Virus record (IMG/VR): IMGVR_UViG_2617270973_000013
Location: 1 to 7,648 of that record
Source: a virus
Taxonomy: Duplodnaviria; Heunggongvirae; Uroviricota; Caudoviricetes
DNA: 7,648 bases
Reading direction: 5' to 3' (one strand)
Both the position numbers and the translations under genes were made by a program. Shown here piece by piece: positions 1 to 7,648 of the stretch; the stretch's first letter is position 1, and each line of letters begins with the position of its first letter. Under the pieces are notes generated by a model. It was given only the letters and a program-made list of their open reading frames with translations, ran no database searches and was not told the DNA's origin.

Positions 1-801
1 TATGTTTCTGATGCGATGAAAGTGGTGGATTCTGCCGTATCGGATGCCGCCAGGCTGTTGCAGGGGGATATCTCGGTACTTCTGCCGCCACCATCGTCAG
101 GCAAAAATCTCGTTGAGCAGGTGCAGAAAATGTGGCGTACCGGGAAACGCCTTTATGGTAACGCCAGCGACCTGGTCACCATGATCAAAACGCTTTCCGG
201 TGTCAGCCTCGGCAGCGATCTGCAACCGCGCGGCGTCTGGAAAACGGACAGTAAAACCACCGCCACGGCGACGCAGCAGCGTAATGTGGTTGCCAGCACC
301 CTTCGTACGACCGCAATCAGCGAAGCGGCGTATGCCGTCACCCGATTGCCTGCGCCAACAACTTCCGCGGTGATGCAGAATTCCGCAGTGGGGCAGGCAA
401 CAACACCTGCGCAGAGCACTGGCTGGCCTTCCGTCACGCATCCGGCACTGAACAATGCACCGGCGGTGAAAAACACGGTTGACCTGCCGACGTGGGAAGA
501 ACTGACTGACATTCGCGACACACTGAATACGGCAATTGATAAGGAGTTGTCCCGTACAACCAGTGATGCGCTGTTTCTGGCGCTGCGCCGGGTGAAAGCA
601 GATCTGAATGCGGATATCAACACGCGCCTTGAACAGTCTGCACGGATCATTCAGCGCACACCGGATGAGGTTTTACCCGCGCTGGTGCTGGCGGCGACCT
701 GGTTTGATAACGCGGCGCGTGACGCGGACATTATCCGGCGTAATGCCATTACGCATCCCGGCTTTGTGCCGGTGATCCCTCTGAAGGTGCCAGTGCAATG
801 A
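1..801 (+). CDS. Tail protein, 5'-truncated at window edge; likely Mu gp43 (N, DNA-circulation)-like C-terminal portion
   Basis: The frame is open from position 1 with no stop, and there is no Shine-Dalgarno before the ATG at 16, so the gene probably starts upstream of the window. Its stop TGA (799-801) overlaps the next gene's ATG (798-800) as ATGA. Identity is inferred from position immediately upstream of a gp44/P-like hub gene, as in Mu; the Ala/Thr/Ser-rich sequence was not recognised directly. Confidence 0.5.
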   Translation, partial: YVSDAMKVVDSAVSDAARLLQGDISVLLPPPSSGKNLVEQVQKMWRTGKRLYGNASDLVTMIKTLSGVSLGSDLQPRGVWKTDSKTTATATQQRNVVASTLRTTAISEAAYAVTRLPAPTTSAVMQNSAVGQATTPAQSTGWPSVTHPALNNAPAVKNTVDLPTWEELTDIRDTLNTAIDKELSRTTSDALFLALRRVKADLNADINTRLEQSARIIQRTPDEVLPALVLAATWFDNAARDADIIRRNAITHPGFVPVIPLKVPVQ

Positions 802-1877
802 ACGACAATGTCACGCTACGGGTAAATGGCCGGGAGTGGAATGGCTGGACATCGGTGCGCATCGGTGCCGGTATTGAACGGCTGGCGCGGGATTTCAGTG
901 TGGAGATCACCCGCCAGTGGCCGGGAGATGAGGGTATCACCACGCTTCAGCCGCGCATTAAAAACGGTTCAAAAGTGGAAGTGCTGATTGGTGATGAGCT
1001 GGTGATCACCGGCTGGGTGGAGGCGACTCCCGTTCGTTACGATGCCCGTTCGGTCAGCACCGGTATTGCCGGACGTAGTCTGACGGCTGACCTGATTGAC
1101 TGTGCAGCCGAACCGACACAGTTTAACGGACGCTCGCTGGTGCAGATTGCGCAGGCGCTTGCTGCGCCTTTCGGCATTGAGGTGGTGAACAGCGGTGCGC
1201 CGTCGGGTGTTATTCCTGATGTTCAGCCTGATCACGGTGAAACGGTGATTGAGGTAATCAACAAAATACTCGGTCAGCAGCAGGCACTGGCTTACGACGA
1301 CCCGCACGGCAGGCTGGTGATTGGCGGTATTGGCTCAACGCGGGCACATACTGCGCTGGTACTCGGGGAAAACATCCTTTCCTGCGATACGGAGAAGAGT
1401 ATCCGGGAGCGATTTTCTGTTTACCAGGTGGCGGGGCAGCGTGCCGGAAACGACGATGATTTCGGTGAGACCACCACCACCGCGCTGCGGGCCCGCACAG
1501 AGGACGCATTTATTGCCCGTTACCGTCCGATGTATATCAGGCAGACAGGGCAGGCCACGGGGGCAGGCTGTATTGCGCGTGCTGACTTTGAAGCCCGACA
1601 ACGGGCGGCGCGGACGGATGAAACCACCTATTTGGTGCAGGGCTGGCGACAGGGTAACGGTACGCTGTGGCAGCCCAACCAGCGGGTGATTGTCTTCGAT
1701 CCGGTCTGTGGTTTCGACAATACCGAACTGCTTGTCTCGGAAGTCACGTTCACTCAGGACCAGAACGGCACCATGACGGAAATCCGTGTCGGCCCACCTG
1801 ATGCTTATCTGCCTGAACCCGAAGCCCCCGGCGCGCGGAAAAAGAAAAAAGCCAGAGTGCAGGAGGACCCGTTCTGA
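798..1877 (+). CDS. Baseplate hub / tail protein, Mu gp44 (P) / P2 gpD-like
   Basis: 359-aa ORF, close to the size I recall for Mu gp44, in the expected position. Start overlaps the upstream stop (ATGA) and the stop overlaps the next start (TGATG at 1875-1879). The C-terminus carries a Lys-rich tail (KKKKAR). Confidence 0.7.
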   Translation: MNDNVTLRVNGREWNGWTSVRIGAGIERLARDFSVEITRQWPGDEGITTLQPRIKNGSKVEVLIGDELVITGWVEATPVRYDARSVSTGIAGRSLTADLIDCAAEPTQFNGRSLVQIAQALAAPFGIEVVNSGAPSGVIPDVQPDHGETVIEVINKILGQQQALAYDDPHGRLVIGGIGSTRAHTALVLGENILSCDTEKSIRERFSVYQVAGQRAGNDDDFGETTTTALRARTEDAFIARYRPMYIRQTGQATGAGCIARADFEARQRAARTDETTYLVQGWRQGNGTLWQPNQRVIVFDPVCGFDNTELLVSEVTFTQDQNGTMTEIRVGPPDAYLPEPEAPGARKKKKARVQEDPF

Positions 1878-2425
1878 TGAGGACGATTGAAGCCATGCAG
1901 CGACAACTCCTCGGCCTGATTGGGCGGGCAGTGGTGAAAAGCATCAGTGCCGCCACGAAATGTCAGACCGTGGATGTGTCCCTGATTGCCGGTGAACCCA
2001 AAGCCGGGGTTGAACATCTTGAACCCTACGGTTTTACCGCAAGGGCAAACAGCGGTGCGGAAGCGGTGGTGTTGTTTCCGGATGGTGACCGTTCTCATGC
2101 GGTGGTTGTTACGGTGTCGGACCGGCGCTACCGCCTGAAAGGGCTGCAGACGGGTGAGGTGGCTGTCTATGACGATCAGGGGCAGTCCGTGACGCTGGCC
2201 CGGGAGGGGATCGTGGTGGACGGTGCAGGTAAAACGATCACGTTTCGCAATGCGCCTAAGGCACGTTTTGAAATGGACCTGGAAGTGACCGGACAGGTGA
2301 AAGACCTGTGCGACTCCACCGGCACCACCATGTCAGCGATGCGGCTTGCCTATAACGGGCATCGTCACAGAGAGAACGGTCAGGGCAGTAACACCGACAA
2401 ACCTGATAAAGCGATGGAGGCATGA
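1877..2425 (+). CDS. Baseplate assembly protein V-like (Mu gp45-like spike/centrepiece)
   Basis: 182-aa ORF in the expected size and order for a gpV/gp45-like protein. Translationally coupled on both sides (TGATG upstream; ATGATG at 2422-2427 downstream). Confidence 0.65.
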   Translation: MRTIEAMQRQLLGLIGRAVVKSISAATKCQTVDVSLIAGEPKAGVEHLEPYGFTARANSGAEAVVLFPDGDRSHAVVVTVSDRRYRLKGLQTGEVAVYDDQGQSVTLAREGIVVDGAGKTITFRNAPKARFEMDLEVTGQVKDLCDSTGTTMSAMRLAYNGHRHRENGQGSNTDKPDKAMEA

Positions 2426-2850
2426 TGGAACTGTGGCTGACGGTGAACGGTAAACGCACCTGCGCCAGCGCACAACTGGATCCGCTGACCCGCGCCGTGG
2501 TGATTTCCCTGTTTACCTGGCGGCGGGCGGAGCCTGATGACAACGCCGACGTCCCGATGGGATGGTGGGGGGATACCTGGCCTGCGGTACAGAATGACCG
2601 TTACGGCTCCCGACTGTGGCTGCTTCAGCGCAGCAAACTGACCAATCAGCTGGTGCAGACGGTAAGGGGGTATATCCGCGAATGCCTGCAATGGATGATT
2701 GATGACGGCGTGGTGTCCCGTATTGATCTGGATATCCGCCGCACCGGGATTAATGAACTGGGTAACAGTATCACTCTCTGGCGTCGTGACGGACCGGTAA
2801 TGATTTCTTTTGATGATCTGTGGAGTGCGATAACGCATGGCGGACAGTGA
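2422..2850 (+). CDS. Phage GP46-family baseplate protein (Mu gp46 / P2 gpW-like)
   Basis: 142-aa ORF containing a WWGD motif of the kind I associate with the GP46 family. It overlaps the next gene by 14 bp. Confidence 0.65.
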   Translation: MMELWLTVNGKRTCASAQLDPLTRAVVISLFTWRRAEPDDNADVPMGWWGDTWPAVQNDRYGSRLWLLQRSKLTNQLVQTVRGYIRECLQWMIDDGVVSRIDLDIRRTGINELGNSITLWRRDGPVMISFDDLWSAITHGGQ

Positions 2851-3895
2851 ATTTCAGCGCCCGACGCTGGCAGAAAATATCAGTATGCTCCGTAACGATT
2901 TATTCGCCAGGCTGGACGTCAGCGACACGCTCCGGCGCATGGATGAAGACGTGCGGGCAAAGGTGTATGCGGCGGCGCTGCATACGGTTTACGGGTACAT
3001 CGATTATCTGGCAATGAATATGCTGCCTGACCTGTGCGATGAGTCCTGGCTGGCGCGACATGCTGCGATGAAACGGTGTCCGCGCAAGGGGGCCACGGCT
3101 GCCAGCGGGTATATGCGCTGGGAAGGTGTCAGCGATGGCCTGAAGGTGACCGCCGGGAGTGTTATTCAGCGCGATGACCTGGTTCAGTACACGGCAACTG
3201 CCGATGCAACCAGCTCCGGTGGTGTCCTGCGCGTGCCGATCGCCTGCTCAAGTGCAGGTGCGGTCGGTAACGCTGACGACGGTACGGCATTAATCCTGGT
3301 CACGCCGGTGAATGGTCTGCCGTCTTCCGGTGTGGCTGACACCCTTACAGGCGGATTTGATACTGAAGAGCTGGAAACGTGGCGCGCCCGCGTCATTGAG
3401 CGGTATTACTGGACGCCTCAGGGCGGGGCTGACGGGGACTATGTCGTCTGGGCTAAAGAAGTGCCCGGCATTACCCGCGCATGGACATACCGTCACTGGA
3501 TGGGAACGGGAACTGTCGGTGTGATGATTGCCAGCAGTGACCTGATTAATCCCATTCCGGAAGAATCAACGGAAACGGCAGCAAGACAACATATCGTGCC
3601 ACTGGCCCCGGTGGCAGGCTCTGATTTGTATGTATTCAGGCCGGTGGCACATACGGTGGATTTTCATATCCGCGTGACGCCGGACACACCAGAAATACGA
3701 GCCGCCATCACCGCGGAGTTGCGTTCGTTTCTTCTGCGTGATGGTTATCCGCAGGGAGAACTGAAGGTATCGCGTATCAGTGAGGCGATTTCCGGTGCGA
3801 ACGGGGAATATAGCCATCAGTTGCTTGCACCGGCAGACAATATCTCCATTGCGAAAAATGAACTGGCGGTTCTGGGGACGATTTCATGGACGTGA
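2837..3895 (+). CDS. Baseplate J-like protein (Mu gp47-like wedge subunit)
   Basis: 352-aa ORF, matching the size and position expected for a Baseplate_J protein between gp46 and gp48. It overlaps the next gene by 10 bp (ATG 3886, stop 3893-3895). Confidence 0.7.
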
Positions 3896-4470
3896 CAAAC
3901 GATGATTACATCCGTCTGTTGTCGGCACTGTTGCCACCCGGTCCGGCGTGGTCAGCCAGAGATCCGGCGATTGCCGGTGCGGCACCGTCATTAACCCGCG
4001 TTCATCAGCGTGCGGATGCCCTGATGCGGGAGCTGGATCCGCGCACCACCACTGAACTGATAAACCGCTGGGAGCGTCTGTGCGGTCTGCCGGATGAATG
4101 TATTCCGGCGGGAACGCAGACTCTTCGCCAGCGTCAGCAACGGCTGGATGCGAAGGTTAATCTGGCGGGCGGCATCAATGAGGATTTTTACCTTGCACAG
4201 CTTGCTGCCCTGGGCAGACCAGACGCTACTATCACGCGATACGATAAAAGCACGTTCACCTGCTCATCGGCCTGTACTGACGCAGTGAATGCGTCGGAAT
4301 GGCGGTATTACTGGCAGGTCAACATGCCAGCCGCCACCAACACCACCTGGATGACATGTGGCGATCCCTGTGATTCCGCACTGCGTATCTGGGGCGACAC
4401 CGTTGTCGAGTGCGTGCTTAACAAACTCTGCCCGTCGCATACCTACGTAATTTTTAAATATCCGGAGTAA
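3886..4470 (+). CDS. Mu gp48 / P2 gpI-like tail protein (DUF2313, YmfQ-like)
   Basis: 194-aa ORF directly upstream of the tail fibre, the length and position I recall for YmfQ/gp48-family proteins. Stop TAA at 4468-4470 is followed 3 bp later by the stf ATG, with GGAG at 4464-4467. Confidence 0.65.
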
Positions 4471-4473
4471 TCC

Positions 4474-5238
4474 ATGCATCGTATAGACACGAAAACCGCG
4501 CAGAAGGATAAGTTCGGCGCGGGTAAGAACGGTTTTACCCGTGGTAACCCCCAGACCGGCACACCTGCCACCGATCTGGATGATGACTACTTTGACATGT
4601 TGCAGGAAGAACTCTGCAGCGTGGTGGAGGCATCCGGTGCCAGCCTGGAGAAGGGGCGGCATGACCAGCTGCTTACCGCGCTTCGTGCGCTGCTGTTAAG
4701 CCGCAAGAATCCGTTTGGTGATATCAAATCGGATGGCACGGTGAAAACGGCTCTCGAAAACCTTGGTTTGGGAGAAGGTGCTCCAGCTATTGGCGTTCCG
4801 TTCTTCTGGCCGTCCGCCGCAATGCCAGATACCGTAATCGAAAGCTGGTCCGGCATGGTGTTTTTGAAGTTCAACGGCGCGAAATTCTCTGCCACTGATT
4901 ACCCTGTGCTGGCGAAAGTGTTTCCTTCGCTGGTATTACCTGAAGCCCGCGGTGATTTCATTCGTATCTGGGATGATGGTCGTGGTGTAGATAGTGGACG
5001 TGGATTACTTAGTACGCAGTCTGACCTGATGAAACAATTTACTTTGCAATACTACGGTCCTTCTGCTGGTACTGGAACAAGAACGGTTTTCGCCCTCCAG
5101 AGTAATGCGAACGGCATATATACGAGTGGTATTAGTCAGAATGATGGTAGTGGCACCGCTGCGGCTTTTAATGTACCAGGCGGCACCGAAACACGCCCAC
5201 GTAACATTGCATTCAACTTTTTAGTAAGGGCTAAATAA
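4474..5238 (+). CDS. Tail fibre protein (constant N-terminus Sc, residues 1-~97, fused to variable C-terminus Sv in the present orientation)
   Basis: 254-aa ORF. The N-terminus has a [16 protein letters not shown] motif resembling Mu S / P2 H N-termini (from memory). The C-terminal part ([10 protein letters not shown]...[15 protein letters not shown]) resembles a phage tail-collar / receptor-binding domain. The crossover site sits in-frame at codons 94-101 (LENLGLGE). Stop TAA 5236-5238 overlaps the tfa ATG (TAATG). Confidence 0.8.
4751..4776. repeat. Left crossover site (Hin/Gin-type, 12-2-12): CTCTCGAAAACC-TT-GGTTTGGGAGAA
   Basis: Both half-sites fit the TTnTCnnAAACC pattern recalled for hix/gix/cix sites. 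A perfect 14-bp inverted copy of 4763-4776 occurs at 6608-6621. The site lies inside the stf coding sequence. Confidence 0.8.
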
Positions 5239-5831
5239 TGAAACCTGTTTTTGATAAAAATGGGCTGGCTACAGTGCCGGGTGATATGCGTTGTTTTTAT
5301 TATGATGCAGTAACGTCTGAATATACTGGCTGGTCTGATGAATATATTAATACTGGTGTAAGTATGCCCGCCTGTTCCACTGGTATTGACCCGGGCGAAT
5401 ACATTCCGGGGAAAGTGGCAGTATTTACGGGTAAGGGATGGAGCCATGAAGAAGACCACCGCAATGAGACTGCTTACTCAATCGAAAATGGCGCAGCTGT
5501 TACAGTGGATTATATCGGTGCCATCAAAGACGGTTATGTCACGCTTTCACCGTTAACGCCATACGATAAATGGGATGGTGAGAAATGGGTGACAGATACT
5601 GAGGCACAGCATAGTGCCGCAGTAGACGCGGCAGAAGCACAGCGCCAGTCGCTGATTGATGCTGCAATGGCTTCCATCAGTCTGATTCAACTGAAATTGC
5701 AGGCCGGGCGGAAGCTGACGCAGGCAGAAACAACCCGACTTAACGCCGTGCTGGATTACATTGACGCGGTGACGGCAACAGATACCAGCACCGCGCCGGA
5801 TATCATCTGGCCTGAACAGCCGGAGGCGTAG
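5238..5831 (+). CDS. Tail fibre assembly chaperone (Tfa / Mu U-like)
   Basis: 197-aa ORF coupled to stf. The C-terminus (LDYIDAVTATDTSTAPDIIWPEQP) carries the conserved tail-fibre-assembly motif and an N-terminal FYYD motif. Confidence 0.8.
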   Translation: MKPVFDKNGLATVPGDMRCFYYDAVTSEYTGWSDEYINTGVSMPACSTGIDPGEYIPGKVAVFTGKGWSHEEDHRNETAYSIENGAAVTVDYIGAIKDGYVTLSPLTPYDKWDGEKWVTDTEAQHSAAVDAAEAQRQSLIDAAMASISLIQLKLQAGRKLTQAETTRLNAVLDYIDAVTATDTSTAPDIIWPEQPEA

Positions 5832-6243
5832 GCCATTCAATATCTGGAGCACTGGAAATATCAACCATTTCCAGTGCGTCCAGATAATCAAGCCATGAAT
5901 TATATTGCGCCAGTTCCTCACCTTTCAGACGACCAATAGCAGCCTTTCCTGGCCACTGCTTACTGTTAATATATTCATTAACTCGATTTATGAGTGCCTG
6001 TTTTTTTCGTTCCGCTTCTGACAGTTGTTCTTCATGAGTTAGCGGCGGTACGTCATCCCATGCAGGATAGCCATCATCACCCGCAACTCTCACCTTCCCT
6101 GGAGGTGGGGACAGGTACTTAATAAATATATCCTCATCAACTTCAACTCCATTATGAGGCCATAACCCAGACTCCTTATACTGACTTTCCAGAGTAAATG
6201 GGTAAAACATATTAGTTTTAGCATCGTAAAGATATTTACTCAT
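5803..6243 (-). CDS. Alternative tail fibre assembly chaperone (Tfa' / U'-like) inside the invertible segment
   Basis: Begins MSKYLYDAKTNMFYPF, a typical Tfa N-terminus, and ends with the conserved LDYLDALEMVDISSAPDIEWPTPP motif. Start ATG at 6243-6241 is preceded by AGGAAG and lies 1 nt after the Sv' stop (TAA at 6247-6245). The 24 extra upstream codons in the ORF track (to 6315) overlap the end of Sv' and are judged not to be the real start. Confidence 0.8.
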   Translation of the reverse strand: MSKYLYDAKTNMFYPFTLESQYKESGLWPHNGVEVDEDIFIKYLSPPPGKVRVAGDDGYPAWDDVPPLTHEEQLSEAERKKQALINRVNEYINSKQWPGKAAIGRLKGEELAQYNSWLDYLDALEMVDISSAPDIEWPTPPAVQAR

Positions 6244-6244
6244 T

Positions 6245-6621
6245 TTATCTTCCTGTAGCAAACCAGCGGCAACCAGCGACAGTTGGAACATTGAAGGATG
6301 GATTTCCTTTATCAAGAGATCCCAGGTTCTCTGCTATGACATTTGAGTTAGTCAATTTATAGAATTGCCATACTGACATTTTCCCTGCCACAGGAGCCTG
6401 GTCATGTTCATTAATAGAAATGACGGCTGTCGGAAATGGGATAGGAAAATTAATCAAAACTTCATTTGTTGTGGCCCCAGTTAGCCCCCATTGTTCAATA
6501 TAACCATCCGGGCTTCGCCTCCATCCCGTCGTTGTATCTCCCCCACACTCCCACGCTGACATATCAGGAATTTGGTTTTGCCCGTTACCCACATCCCGTT
6601 TTGCCGCTTCTCCCAAACCAA
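6245..6621 (-). CDS. Alternative tail fibre C-terminal cassette (Sv'), start-less; expressed only as an in-frame fusion to Sc after inversion
   Basis: - strand ORF with no ATG; the track's initial 'M' is a TTG at 6616-6614. Directly stitching the sequence after inversion at the crossover core gives ...ENLGLGE-AAKRDVGNGQ..., in frame with stf codons 1-98. It is immediately followed by tfa' in the stf-tfa arrangement. Confidence 0.75.
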
Positions 6622-6633
6622 CCTTTCAAATAT
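6608..6633. repeat. Right crossover site: TTCTCCCAAACC-AA-CCTTTCAAATAT (inner half canonical, outer half degenerate)
   Basis: Positions 6608-6621 are the exact reverse complement of 4763-4776. The core AA is the complement of the left core TT, as required for inversion. The site ends 59 bp upstream of the invertase ATG. Confidence 0.8.
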
Positions 6634-6660
6634 TTTTCTGAATCAGGTGATATTTCGCCT

Positions 6661-6687
6661 CTTCTCCTGTTTTTACAACAGGAGAAG
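6661..6687 (+). promoter_or_regulatory. Perfect 10-bp stem / 7-nt loop hairpin (CTTCTCCTGT-ttttaca-ACAGGAGAAG) whose 3' arm contains the invertase Shine-Dalgarno
   Basis: Inverted repeat read directly from the sequence. No U-tract follows on either strand, so it is not a canonical intrinsic terminator. It could equally be a palindromic protein-binding site. Confidence 0.4.
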
Positions 6688-6692
6688 CACTC

Positions 6693-7256
6693 ATGATTTA
6701 CGGGTATGTACGTGTATCAACAAATCATCAGGATACAGAGTTGCAACGTCTTGCACTTGAGTCAGTTGGCTGTGAGCGAATTTATGAAGAATATGCCAGT
6801 GGCAGAACAGCTAATCGCCCTGTGTTAAAGGAATTAATTACGGTGATGAAAAGTGGAGATGAGTTGATTGTCTGGAAGTTAGATCGGATAGGGAGAAATG
6901 TGCTGCATGCGCTATTGATGTTTCAAAATCTGCACGAAAAAGGTGTTAATTTTCGGAGTATTACAGATGGCGTAGACCTGAAAACAGCAAGTGGTCGCTA
7001 TAATTTCCGTAATATTCTTTCTGCTGCGCAGTATGAATCTGATTTGAATAGCGAGCGAACTTTAGCTGGTTTGGCTATTGCCAGATCCAAAGGCCGGATT
7101 GGTGGGCGTAGACCGAAGTTTAGCGACGAGCAGTGGCAACAGATGGGAGCGCTCATAGCGGCAGGGAAATCACGGCGTTATGTTGCACGTATCTATAACG
7201 TTGGGCTATCAACCCTATATAAACGATTTCCTGTTACTGGCATTCAAACGAAATAA
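6693..7256 (+). CDS. Serine recombinase, DNA invertase of the Hin/Gin/Cin/Pin family
   Basis: 187-aa ORF with N-terminal YGYVRVSTNHQDTELQ (catalytic Ser in the YVRVST motif), VWKLDRIGRN, and C-terminal GRIGGRRPK and helix-turn-helix-like region (RRYVARIYNVGLSTLYKR). Strong SD GGAG at 6681-6684, 8 nt before the ATG. It lies directly outside the right crossover site. Confidence 0.9.
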   Translation: MIYGYVRVSTNHQDTELQRLALESVGCERIYEEYASGRTANRPVLKELITVMKSGDELIVWKLDRIGRNVLHALLMFQNLHEKGVNFRSITDGVDLKTASGRYNFRNILSAAQYESDLNSERTLAGLAIARSKGRIGGRRPKFSDEQWQQMGALIAAGKSRRYVARIYNVGLSTLYKRFPVTGIQTK

Positions 7257-7399
7257 TTTAAAAGCAATTTAAAGAGTTATTTGTCTAATGTTGGAAGCCG
7301 CAGCCACGTCGTATGCAAGAACGTGCTGCGGCTGGCTGGCGAACTTTCGATAGTGCGAGTATTGAATGATTTCCAGCCGTTACCGATTTTACGTGTTAA

Positions 7400-7648
7400 T
7401 TAGTGAACAAACCACTCGTCAGCAGATTCCCAGGTATCTTTCAGAGTCTCCTGAACAAAAGTTTTTGCAGAATCCTTATCTGCGGTGCGTGTAACAGAAA
7501 GGCCATCGTTGCTGGTGGCTTTTACGATCACCTCTACATCGTCATAACGTTTACTGATGCGTCGGGTTAATTCTTCCTTTAACGCATCCACAGCACCGGT
7601 TGGCATTTTAGTCATTTTTTCTTTGGCTATGCAGATTTCAATACGCAT
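7400..7648 (-). CDS. DinI-family protein (DNA-damage-inducible protein I-like)
   Basis: 82-aa ORF; the N-terminus MRIEICIAK and C-terminus [17 protein letters not shown] closely resemble E. coli DinI as I recall it. The ATG lies exactly at the window end (7648-7646), so its promoter and any LexA box are outside the window. Confidence 0.7.

Follow-up and report, generated by a model that had tools for sequence, protein, structure and literature searches.

A very probably active tail-fibre inversion switch in an Escherichia coli prophage, paired with a serine invertase of the PinL-type clade

Results

A fibre operon with two alternative C-termini

We analyzed a stretch of 7,648 nucleotides (nt) from a tailed phage (Caudoviricetes; positions 1 to 7,648 of IMG/VR record IMGVR_UViG_2617270973_000013), referred to here as the window. 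It contains a tail-fibre locus, very probably an active inversion switch, in which a segment of ~1.86 kb is bounded by two crossover sites, carries one fibre and chaperone cassette on each strand (Sv-tfa on the + strand, tfa'-Sv' on the − strand) and is followed by a gene for a serine DNA invertase. Over its whole length the window matches nt 3-7650 of JNOZ01000066.1, a contig of the E. coli draft genome GCA_000703605.1, at 100% identity. The parts of the locus, in window coordinates and with lengths in amino acids (aa), are:

4474-4762, + strand: Sc, the constant N-terminal part of fibre gene S (~96 aa), outside the invertible segment
4751-4776: left crossover site (pixL-like), CTCTCGAAAACC-TT-GGTTTGGGAGAA, with crossover at 4763-4764
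4763-5238, + strand: Sv, the currently facing fibre C-terminus, of tail-collar type, in frame with Sc
5238-5831, + strand: tfa, assembly chaperone for Sv, 197 aa; its start overlaps the S stop codon
5803-6243, − strand: tfa', chaperone of the silent cassette, 146 aa (PF02413, E 2.7e-34)
6245-6621, − strand: Sv', the silent alternative fibre C-terminus, gp53-like, with no start of its own; it would be read only after inversion
6608-6633: right crossover site, TTCTCCCAAACC-AA-CCTTTCAAATAT, with crossover at 6620-6621
6693-7256, + strand: serine DNA invertase of the PinL-type clade, 187 aa (PF00239, E 4e-36; PF02796, E 7e-12)

The N-terminal 100 aa of the open reading frame at 4474-5238 match PHROG tail-fibre families. 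The variable part that follows matches PHROG 523 ‘tail collar fiber protein’ (E 5e-51) and phrog_3100, and is weakly similar to the T4 gp37 tip structure 2XGF; Pfam and NCBIfam searches gave no match for the 254-aa fibre, the matches coming from PHROGs and from PDB similarity. Tfa matches PF02413 (Caudo_TAP; E 4.8e-28) and phrog_105 (E 4e-84), and Tfa', on the opposite strand, is identical at 142 of its 146 residues to a copy that is expressed in E. coli E4. When 4763-6621 is flipped in silico at the central dinucleotide, Sc is joined to Sv' in one uninterrupted 221-aa product, in place of the present 254-aa Sc-Sv fusion, and this product carries PF21882 (Gp53-like_C; E 6e-12). An initial annotation, made from the letters of the sequence, had proposed an Sv-tfa cassette on one strand and a tfa'-Sv' cassette on the other, with in-frame junctions to Sc. 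Both proposals hold: the two PF02413 matches, PF21882 and the PHROG matches fall where the cassettes had been placed, and the flipped fusion is open throughout.

The 3′-ends of tfa and tfa', which converge, share 29 nt (5803-5831), in which each strand encodes a conserved ...APDI.WP... C-terminus; the same overlap is found in the K-12 element e14, in E. coli E4, in Escherichia phage SKA5 and in other relatives. In several RefSeq genomes the fibre gene homologous to 4474-5238 is named ‘integrase’ (e.g., NZ_CP087564.1, 7474-8220, WP_274480369.1), which appears to be a misannotation.

Two crossover sites in inverted orientation

Taken as 26-mers in inverted orientation, the two sites are identical at 19 of 26 positions and share the core dinucleotide TT/AA. 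The likeness is unevenly spread. In its core and inner half the right site repeats the left site exactly, in inverted orientation, giving an inverted 14-mer of which the window has just two copies, one on each strand (0.01 expected by chance; two copies were reached in 0 of 200 shuffles), and a repeat finder extends this to a 20-nt inverted repeat at 90% identity (4758-4777 versus 6607-6626). Between the outer half-sites just 5 of 12 positions agree. The coordinates and orientation originally given for a pair of 26-bp sites flanking ~1.86 kb are thus correct, but the true repeat is limited to the inner 14-20 nt.

The left site matches the AAACCNNGGTTT core perfectly. It is base for base the left site of e14 in K-12 and includes TTGGTTTGGGAGAAGG, the repeat published as the e14 inversion site (PMC12529663). 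The right site has the same inner half and core as that of e14, with an outer half that is unlike e14 (CGTTTATGAAAA) and identical in phi80, mEp237 and SKA5.

Other site-like sequences were considered and rejected. An inverted repeat at 4778-4792 and 5838-5852 (15 nt, 93%), adjoining the left site and a candidate for a third one, has flanks that are not site-like, and is present because the two places encode similar peptides (GAPAIG versus SAPDIE). A 26-mer at the junction of S and tfa (5234-5259, AATAATGAAACC-TG-TTTTTGATAAAA) has two core mismatches and a core of TG, not TT/AA; although kept in relatives, it is probably a by-product of the conserved coding of the Tfa N-terminus (MKPVFD).

Both arrangements occur in natural genomes

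The evidence on orientation is at the level of natural genomes. After flipping in silico, 4474-7300 aligns in one piece, Sc together with the whole segment, at 98.5-99.3% to the genomes of E. coli E4, TUM10008 and FDAARGOS_1250, whereas the unflipped window aligns to the same three between the sites only. The E4 segment is 98.7% identical and flipped, and its junctions are exactly as predicted (...CTTGGTTTGGGAGAAGCGGCAAAACGG... and ...GGAGCACCTTCTCCCAAACCAACG...). The 221-aa fusion is annotated in E4 and is identical to the in-silico Sc-Sv' product at 212 of 221 residues.

A second line of evidence concerns segments beside the window's own type of invertase. The dusA prophages GPEC1240, ETEC1703, RM9088 and EC-07 have invertase genes that differ from that of the window at 2-6 of 564 nt, yet all four show the opposite arrangement, the gp53-type fibre being the expressed one and the collar type the silent one. 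With a 201-bp probe for the right junction, the junctions detected beside this invertase leader in complete E. coli genomes number 39 of the window type and 8 of the flipped type. PinL-type genes adjoin two-cassette segments in Serratia, Klebsiella and Citrobacter as well as in E. coli, and a comparison of one Serratia locus with one Klebsiella locus, both with a PinL-type invertase, reveals collinear flanks and an inverted cassette with breakpoints at the sites. More generally, the segments are highly mosaic among relatives.

The invertase belongs to a distinct clade

The invertase gene begins 59 bp beyond the right site and encodes Resolvase and HTH_7 domains. Its product has the parts of a small serine recombinase: a catalytic domain with Ser and Arg/Asp residues, helix E, and a C-terminal helix-turn-helix. 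It matches the PHROG invertase family and the structure of Gin (3UJ3, E = 4e-56). Aligned with Gin, Cin, PinE and Hin, the residues S9, R7, D64, R65, R68, E121 and R122 are invariant (the residues of the Hin sequence used are numbered as in the papers cited below). The serine invertase reported initially, lying immediately outside the right site with its catalytic serine intact, is accordingly confirmed as to position and as to Ser9, and no catalytic residue is lost on alignment.

The affinities of the enzyme lie elsewhere than with the best known members of the family. Protein alignment gives 54% identity to PinE (the E4 copy), 52% to Cin, 49% to Gin and 44% to Hin; tblastn similarly gives 52-55% to P1 Cin and other phage invertases annotated as Gin or Hin. 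Identity is 99.5% to the SKA5 enzyme, 78-79% to phi80 PinL and the invertases of mEp237, HK225 and Omnitron, and 73.6% to that of mEpX1. The 120 best clusters at 90% identity are all at least 76% identical to the window invertase and bear generic names only; they come from Escherichia, Salmonella, Citrobacter, Enterobacter, Klebsiella, Serratia, Kluyvera and others. Clusters at this level were used as a library at 50% identity merges the whole Din family, PinL-type and classical alike, into one cluster. A search of a library of papers returned none on the function of phi80 PinL and no experimental work on the PinL-type clade.

Two further observations concern this gene. Residue 25 (6765-6767) is Val in the window and in two draft contigs with identical invertase genes; it is Ala in 6/6 other close relatives checked (four E. 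coli dusA prophages, CM2010-0578/1 and SKA5), in phi80 PinL and in the aligned classical invertases. The mEpX1 invertase (our locus L017, 2501-3049) is chimeric: approximately its first 60 residues, together with the enhancer-like DNA, are of the classical Gin/Pin type, and from about residue 62 it is PinL-type. PinL-type and classical clades therefore recombine.

The Fis and enhancer signature

Inversion by the Fis/enhancer-dependent invertases (Hin, Gin, Cin and Pin, the ‘Din’ group) needs Fis and supercoiled DNA, and the enhancer, with two Fis sites, acts in cis from the 5′-end of the invertase gene. Studies of Hin have identified the surfaces through which Fis and the enhancer act. Activation needs a basic patch on helix B (McLean et al. 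2013, PMC3798978): in 15 invertases residue 47 is always Lys and positions 48 and 51 always carry Lys or Arg, and a Hin R48A/K51A double mutant is severely impaired (PMC3798978). For contact with Fis, Hin needs Q151, R154 and L155 in helix 1 of its DNA-binding domain; R154A and L155A are nearly inactive, and the three residues are conserved only among Fis-dependent invertases (PMC3798978). In helix E, F105 and M109 lock the inactive dimer and F106 is essential (Chang and Johnson 2015, PMC4513852). In vivo, Hin F105N inverts faster and independently of Fis, and it strongly induces SOS (PMC4513852).

The window invertase departs from Hin at all three surfaces. At the helix-B patch it has K46, E47 and T50, and at the Fis-contact positions Q150, A153 and L154. 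In place of the Phe triad at 104-106 and the hydrophobic Met109 and Leu112 it has Y-N-F, Ile and Ala, keeping Phe106 and Phe88; the residues at Hin H107, M109, L112 and M115 are R, I, A and Y. The initial label of a ‘Hin/Gin-type’ switch is thus right as a statement of homology, but the enzyme does not carry the published Fis- and enhancer-contact signature of that group.

The same comparison was made for 119 PinL-type representatives and 120 PinE-type controls, using Hin numbering:

Helix E 104/105/106/107/109/112/115: Y N F R I A Y, invariant in 119 PinL-type; F F F H M L M, invariant in 120 controls
Position 48 basic: 95/119 PinL-type; 120/120 controls
Position 51 basic: 9/119 PinL-type; 120/120 controls
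Q151: 47/119 PinL-type; 119/120 controls
R154: 38/119 PinL-type; 120/120 controls
L155: 68/119 PinL-type; 120/120 controls
Mean pairwise identity of the set: 0.82 PinL-type; 0.85 controls

Since both sets are similarly diverse, the contrast is not an effect of sampling depth.

The DNA of the enhancer was also compared. The relevant stretch is:

6714-6777 (gene nt 22-85), + strand: stretch homologous to the classical Fis-dependent enhancer; function here doubtful

In the P7 record the enhancer annotation covers nt 19-86 of cin, and nt 23-37 and 71-85, which are 48 bp apart, fall inside it. Against a degenerate Fis consensus from the literature, 5/5 classical genes have no mismatch at either place. 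The window gene has one mismatch at nt 23-37 and three at nt 71-85, numbers to be read with the looseness of Fis sites and of the consensus in mind, so that Fis may still bind there. In 11/11 PinL-type genes there is one mismatch in the first and one to three in the second, always with C for G at the first distal position.

Dependence of the window invertase on Fis and the enhancer is doubtful, judging from sequence, because the contact positions vary, the helix-E lock is altered (compare Hin F105N) and the matches to Fis sites are degraded. One published result weighs on the other side: in vitro, Hin F105N still required Fis for ligated products (PMC4513852). For the clade as a whole, these three lines jointly indicate that PinL-type enzymes most likely make no use of the canonical Fis/enhancer contacts of Hin and Gin.

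A hairpin in the invertase leader

Between the right site and the invertase gene lies a leader with predicted secondary structure:

6645-6688, + strand: invertase leader, with a small hairpin at 6645-6660 and an 11-bp hairpin at 6661-6687 (predicted fold)

The 81-nt leader folds at -29.7 kcal/mol (z = -5.4), and its 11-bp hairpin (CTTCTCCTGTT-loop-AACAGGAGAAG) pairs the Shine-Dalgarno sequence AGGAG. All PinL-type leaders examined (Escherichia, Citrobacter, Serratia and Klebsiella) keep this hairpin, with a compensatory change from C-G to T-A at the base of the stem; the leaders of gin and pinE do not have it. By hiding the ribosome-binding site it may limit translation of the invertase; such throttling would suit a recombinase whose lock has been loosened. 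A sigma-70 scan of the leader detected no invertase promoter at threshold, and by eye an 8/12 match overlaps the right site.

Comparison with known inversion systems

Among the closest known systems is the P segment of e14 in K-12, with its invertase PinE. Gene order is the same (ymfQ(gp48)-S-tfa followed by tfa'-Sv'-invertase; in e14, ymfQ-stfP-tfaP and tfaE-stfE-pinE), and the two loci also agree in the left site, in the right site's core and inner half, and in the 29-nt overlap of the tfa genes. Sc is 70% identical to StfP, Tfa 62% to TfaE, and Tfa' 67% to TfaP over the C-terminal 78 residues. Experiments have mapped the ends of the invertible P segment to the e14 repeats, TTGGTTTGGGAGAAGG and CCTTCTCCCAAACCAA; the segment flips spontaneously in K-12 cultures and under expression of PinE or PinQ (PMC4272514; PMC12529663). 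The differences lie in the invertase, which belongs to another clade, in the outer half of the right site, in the leader, and in the Sv and Sv' alleles. Moreover, e14 is a decayed prophage at icd, whereas the element in the window is seemingly complete and integrated at dusA.

The G segment of Mu with Gin and the C segment of P1 and P7 with Cin share the general plan: a constant Sc is fused to Sv or Sv', each with its chaperone, and an invertase lies directly outside one of two 26-bp sites with an AAACC-NN-GGTTT centre. The baseplate genes of the window are likewise homologues of Mu gp44-48. The fibres are shorter, at 254 and 221 aa compared with 504 aa for Mu S, as is the segment (1.86 kb, against ~3 kb in Mu and ~4 kb in P7). 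With TT/AA as its core dinucleotide, the window agrees with cix and e14 and differs from gix, which has TC/GA. The Fis- and enhancer-contact residues common to Hin, Gin and Cin are lacking in the window invertase. The resemblance to Mu G, P1 C and e14 P proposed at the outset is well founded.

Invertases of the same clade as that of the window are found in phi80, mEp237, HK225, mEpX1, the Citrobacter phage Omnitron and SKA5. The right site and the leader with its hairpin are 100% identical to the window in phi80 and mEp237, and SKA5 differs at one leader base; Omnitron has a variant right site and leader, and mEpX1 a different upstream region in which neither is present. In these relatives, as in the window, a dinI-like gene and an integrase lie near the invertase. 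What surrounds the gene differs. In lambdoid siphoviruses it stands as an orphan beside attP, with only a tail-collar pseudogene fragment and one site left, and phi80 PinL is truncated to 172 aa, without a recognition helix; these loci look like a remnant of the same module. In the window and in SKA5 a full two-cassette segment accompanies the invertase, and SKA5, which carries the same module (98% identical), was deposited as a complete phage genome of 37.6 kb. In phi80 (our locus L005, 3733-4519) the tail-collar pseudogene fragment and a dinI-like gene stand alongside PinL, and in mEp237 there is a MsgA/DinI-like gene.

The Shigella phages SfV, SfI, SfII and SfIV provide a further comparison. 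Their baseplate genes and Sc are 97-98% identical to those of the window through the left site, but SfV has a single Sv-tfa cassette, after which come gtr genes; it lacks both a second cassette and an invertase. The SfV fibre operon is a one-state version of that in the window.

The prophage around the switch

Upstream of the switch are Mu-type baseplate genes: gp44-like, gp45, gp46, Baseplate_J/gp47 and gp48/YmfQ. On the 3′-side the invertase is followed by one more gene within the window:

7400-7648, − strand: DinI-like gene (PF06183), just downstream of the invertase

Beyond it, in the source contig, come a dusA-specific tyrosine integrase and dusA itself. The DinI-like gene, the integrase and dusA together identify the element as a prophage integrated at dusA. 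The pairing of pin and dinI is also found in phi80, mEp237 and other PinL-type loci. The host element is seemingly a complete E. coli prophage; its baseplate is Mu-like, and SfV, e14 and SKA5 are relatives.

The tail module is 97-98% identical to those of SKA5 and of SfV, SfI, SfII and SfIV. The DNA of Sc shares in this likeness to the four Shigella phages, which ends exactly at window position 4777, the end of the left crossover site; on that basis the left site is also a boundary of module exchange. Composition changes in the same region: the baseplate genes have a G+C content of 57.8% and Sc one of 55.7%, as against 42-50% for the invertible segment and 43% for the invertase and dinI genes, and this step down at the switch indicates that the switch module has had a compositional history unlike that of the tail genes.

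Discussion

Inverted 26-bp sites, opposed in-frame cassettes and the occurrence of both orientations among natural genomes together identify the locus as a complete and very probably active site-specific tail-fibre inversion switch of an E. coli prophage, a reading to which we assign a probability of about 0.85. The initial suggestion that the switch is probably functional gains support from the flipped segments of E4, TUM10008 and FDAARGOS_1250 and from the two arrangements beside near-identical invertases; these comparisons strongly suggest that the copy in the window is itself active. The switch as such is ordinary, being of the well-known e14/Mu/P1 type, to which p15B also belongs. It is the clade of its invertase that is unexpected.

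Some observations weigh against activity. At the right site, the outer half matches the family half-site weakly (ATATTTGAAAGG versus TTCTCnnAAACC). The flipped copy in E4 adjoins pinE, not a PinL-type invertase, and PinE could therefore have made that flip. No exact flipped twin (at least 80% coverage) with a PinL-type invertase was found in 5,426 complete E. coli genomes, in a search that covered the allele set of the window and that of GPEC1240; as the segments are too mosaic, however, this search is uninformative on PinL activity.

The same observations are what would be expected of a frozen remnant, in which the diverged invertase or the poorly matching right outer half-site is no longer competent and the flips seen elsewhere are due to enzymes of the PinE or PinQ type acting in trans, or to module exchange. 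Such a remnant would account for the divergence of the two outer half-sites, for a flipped twin known beside pinE and not beside a PinL-type gene, and for the mosaicism of the segments; the orphan invertases of phi80, mEp237 and mEpX1, with their segment remnants and the truncated PinL of phi80, show the same tendency. We nevertheless consider it unlikely. Catalytic and helix-E residues are invariant in the 119 clade representatives, which come from many genera, and this invariance points to purifying selection on an active enzyme. The right site and leader are preserved base for base between the window and phi80 and mEp237, with the one leader difference in SKA5. PinL-type genes stand beside two-cassette segments in four genera, and one pair of these loci differs by a site-bounded inversion. 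Finally, both junction types are found beside invertase genes that differ by no more than 6 nt in 564.

That the switch instead mainly serves the host, inversion producing a fibre-derived protein that blocks adsorption of other phages as for e14 with PinQ, is very improbable: inversion of the K-12 e14 P segment, which has identical repeats, does yield a chimeric StfE2 reported to block T2 adsorption (PMC12529663), but the baseplate and fibre operon of the window are intact and its module is 98% identical to that of SKA5, whereas e14 is decayed, and no start codon or promoter signal was detected for the outward-facing fragment that inversion would place beside the invertase. Host-defence and host-range roles are in any case not mutually exclusive.

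As an active switch, the locus would work as follows. The late operon would read from Sc (4474-4762) into whichever cassette faces it, at present giving the 254-aa collar-type fibre and Tfa. The invertase would bind both 26-bp sites and, by analogy with its relatives, cut the central TT/AA via Ser9. In this family the serine attacks at the 2-bp core, the subunits then rotate to exchange the strands, and the cores, being identical, can be religated. Strand exchange would then flip 4763-6621, yielding the 221-aa fibre with its gp53-like tip, together with Tfa'. A population of lysogens would in this way release particles with two receptor specificities. The PinL-type enzyme, for its part, may be held in check by the leader hairpin rather than by Fis.

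Host-range bet-hedging by tail-fibre inversion is a textbook phenomenon, common in E. coli prophages, and confirming the switch adds mainly to annotation, as with the fibre gene called ‘integrase’ in RefSeq. The invertase clade raises a broader question, for control by Fis and the enhancer is the paradigm for safety and directionality in serine invertases, and enhancer-independent variants are, to our knowledge, known mostly as laboratory mutants, used to engineer zinc-finger and TALE recombinases. We tentatively propose, at somewhat less than even odds, that the PinL-type enzymes (more than 100 clusters in Enterobacteriaceae, phi80 PinL included) are a natural lineage of tail-fibre invertases that acts on classical pix/cix-like sites and has abandoned the Fis/enhancer invertasome. 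In this lineage the helix-E lock would have been rebuilt, the contact surfaces would be drifting, and expression would be throttled by the leader hairpin that hides the ribosome-binding site; its members would be the wild-type counterpart of the ‘hyperactive’ laboratory mutants of Hin and Gin. If this is true, a widespread group of natural enzymes acting on the same sites, though lacking the Fis-contact signature, would show an alternative solution to the problem of recombinase control, and the PinL-type enzymes would offer ready-made, naturally ‘activated’ catalytic domains.

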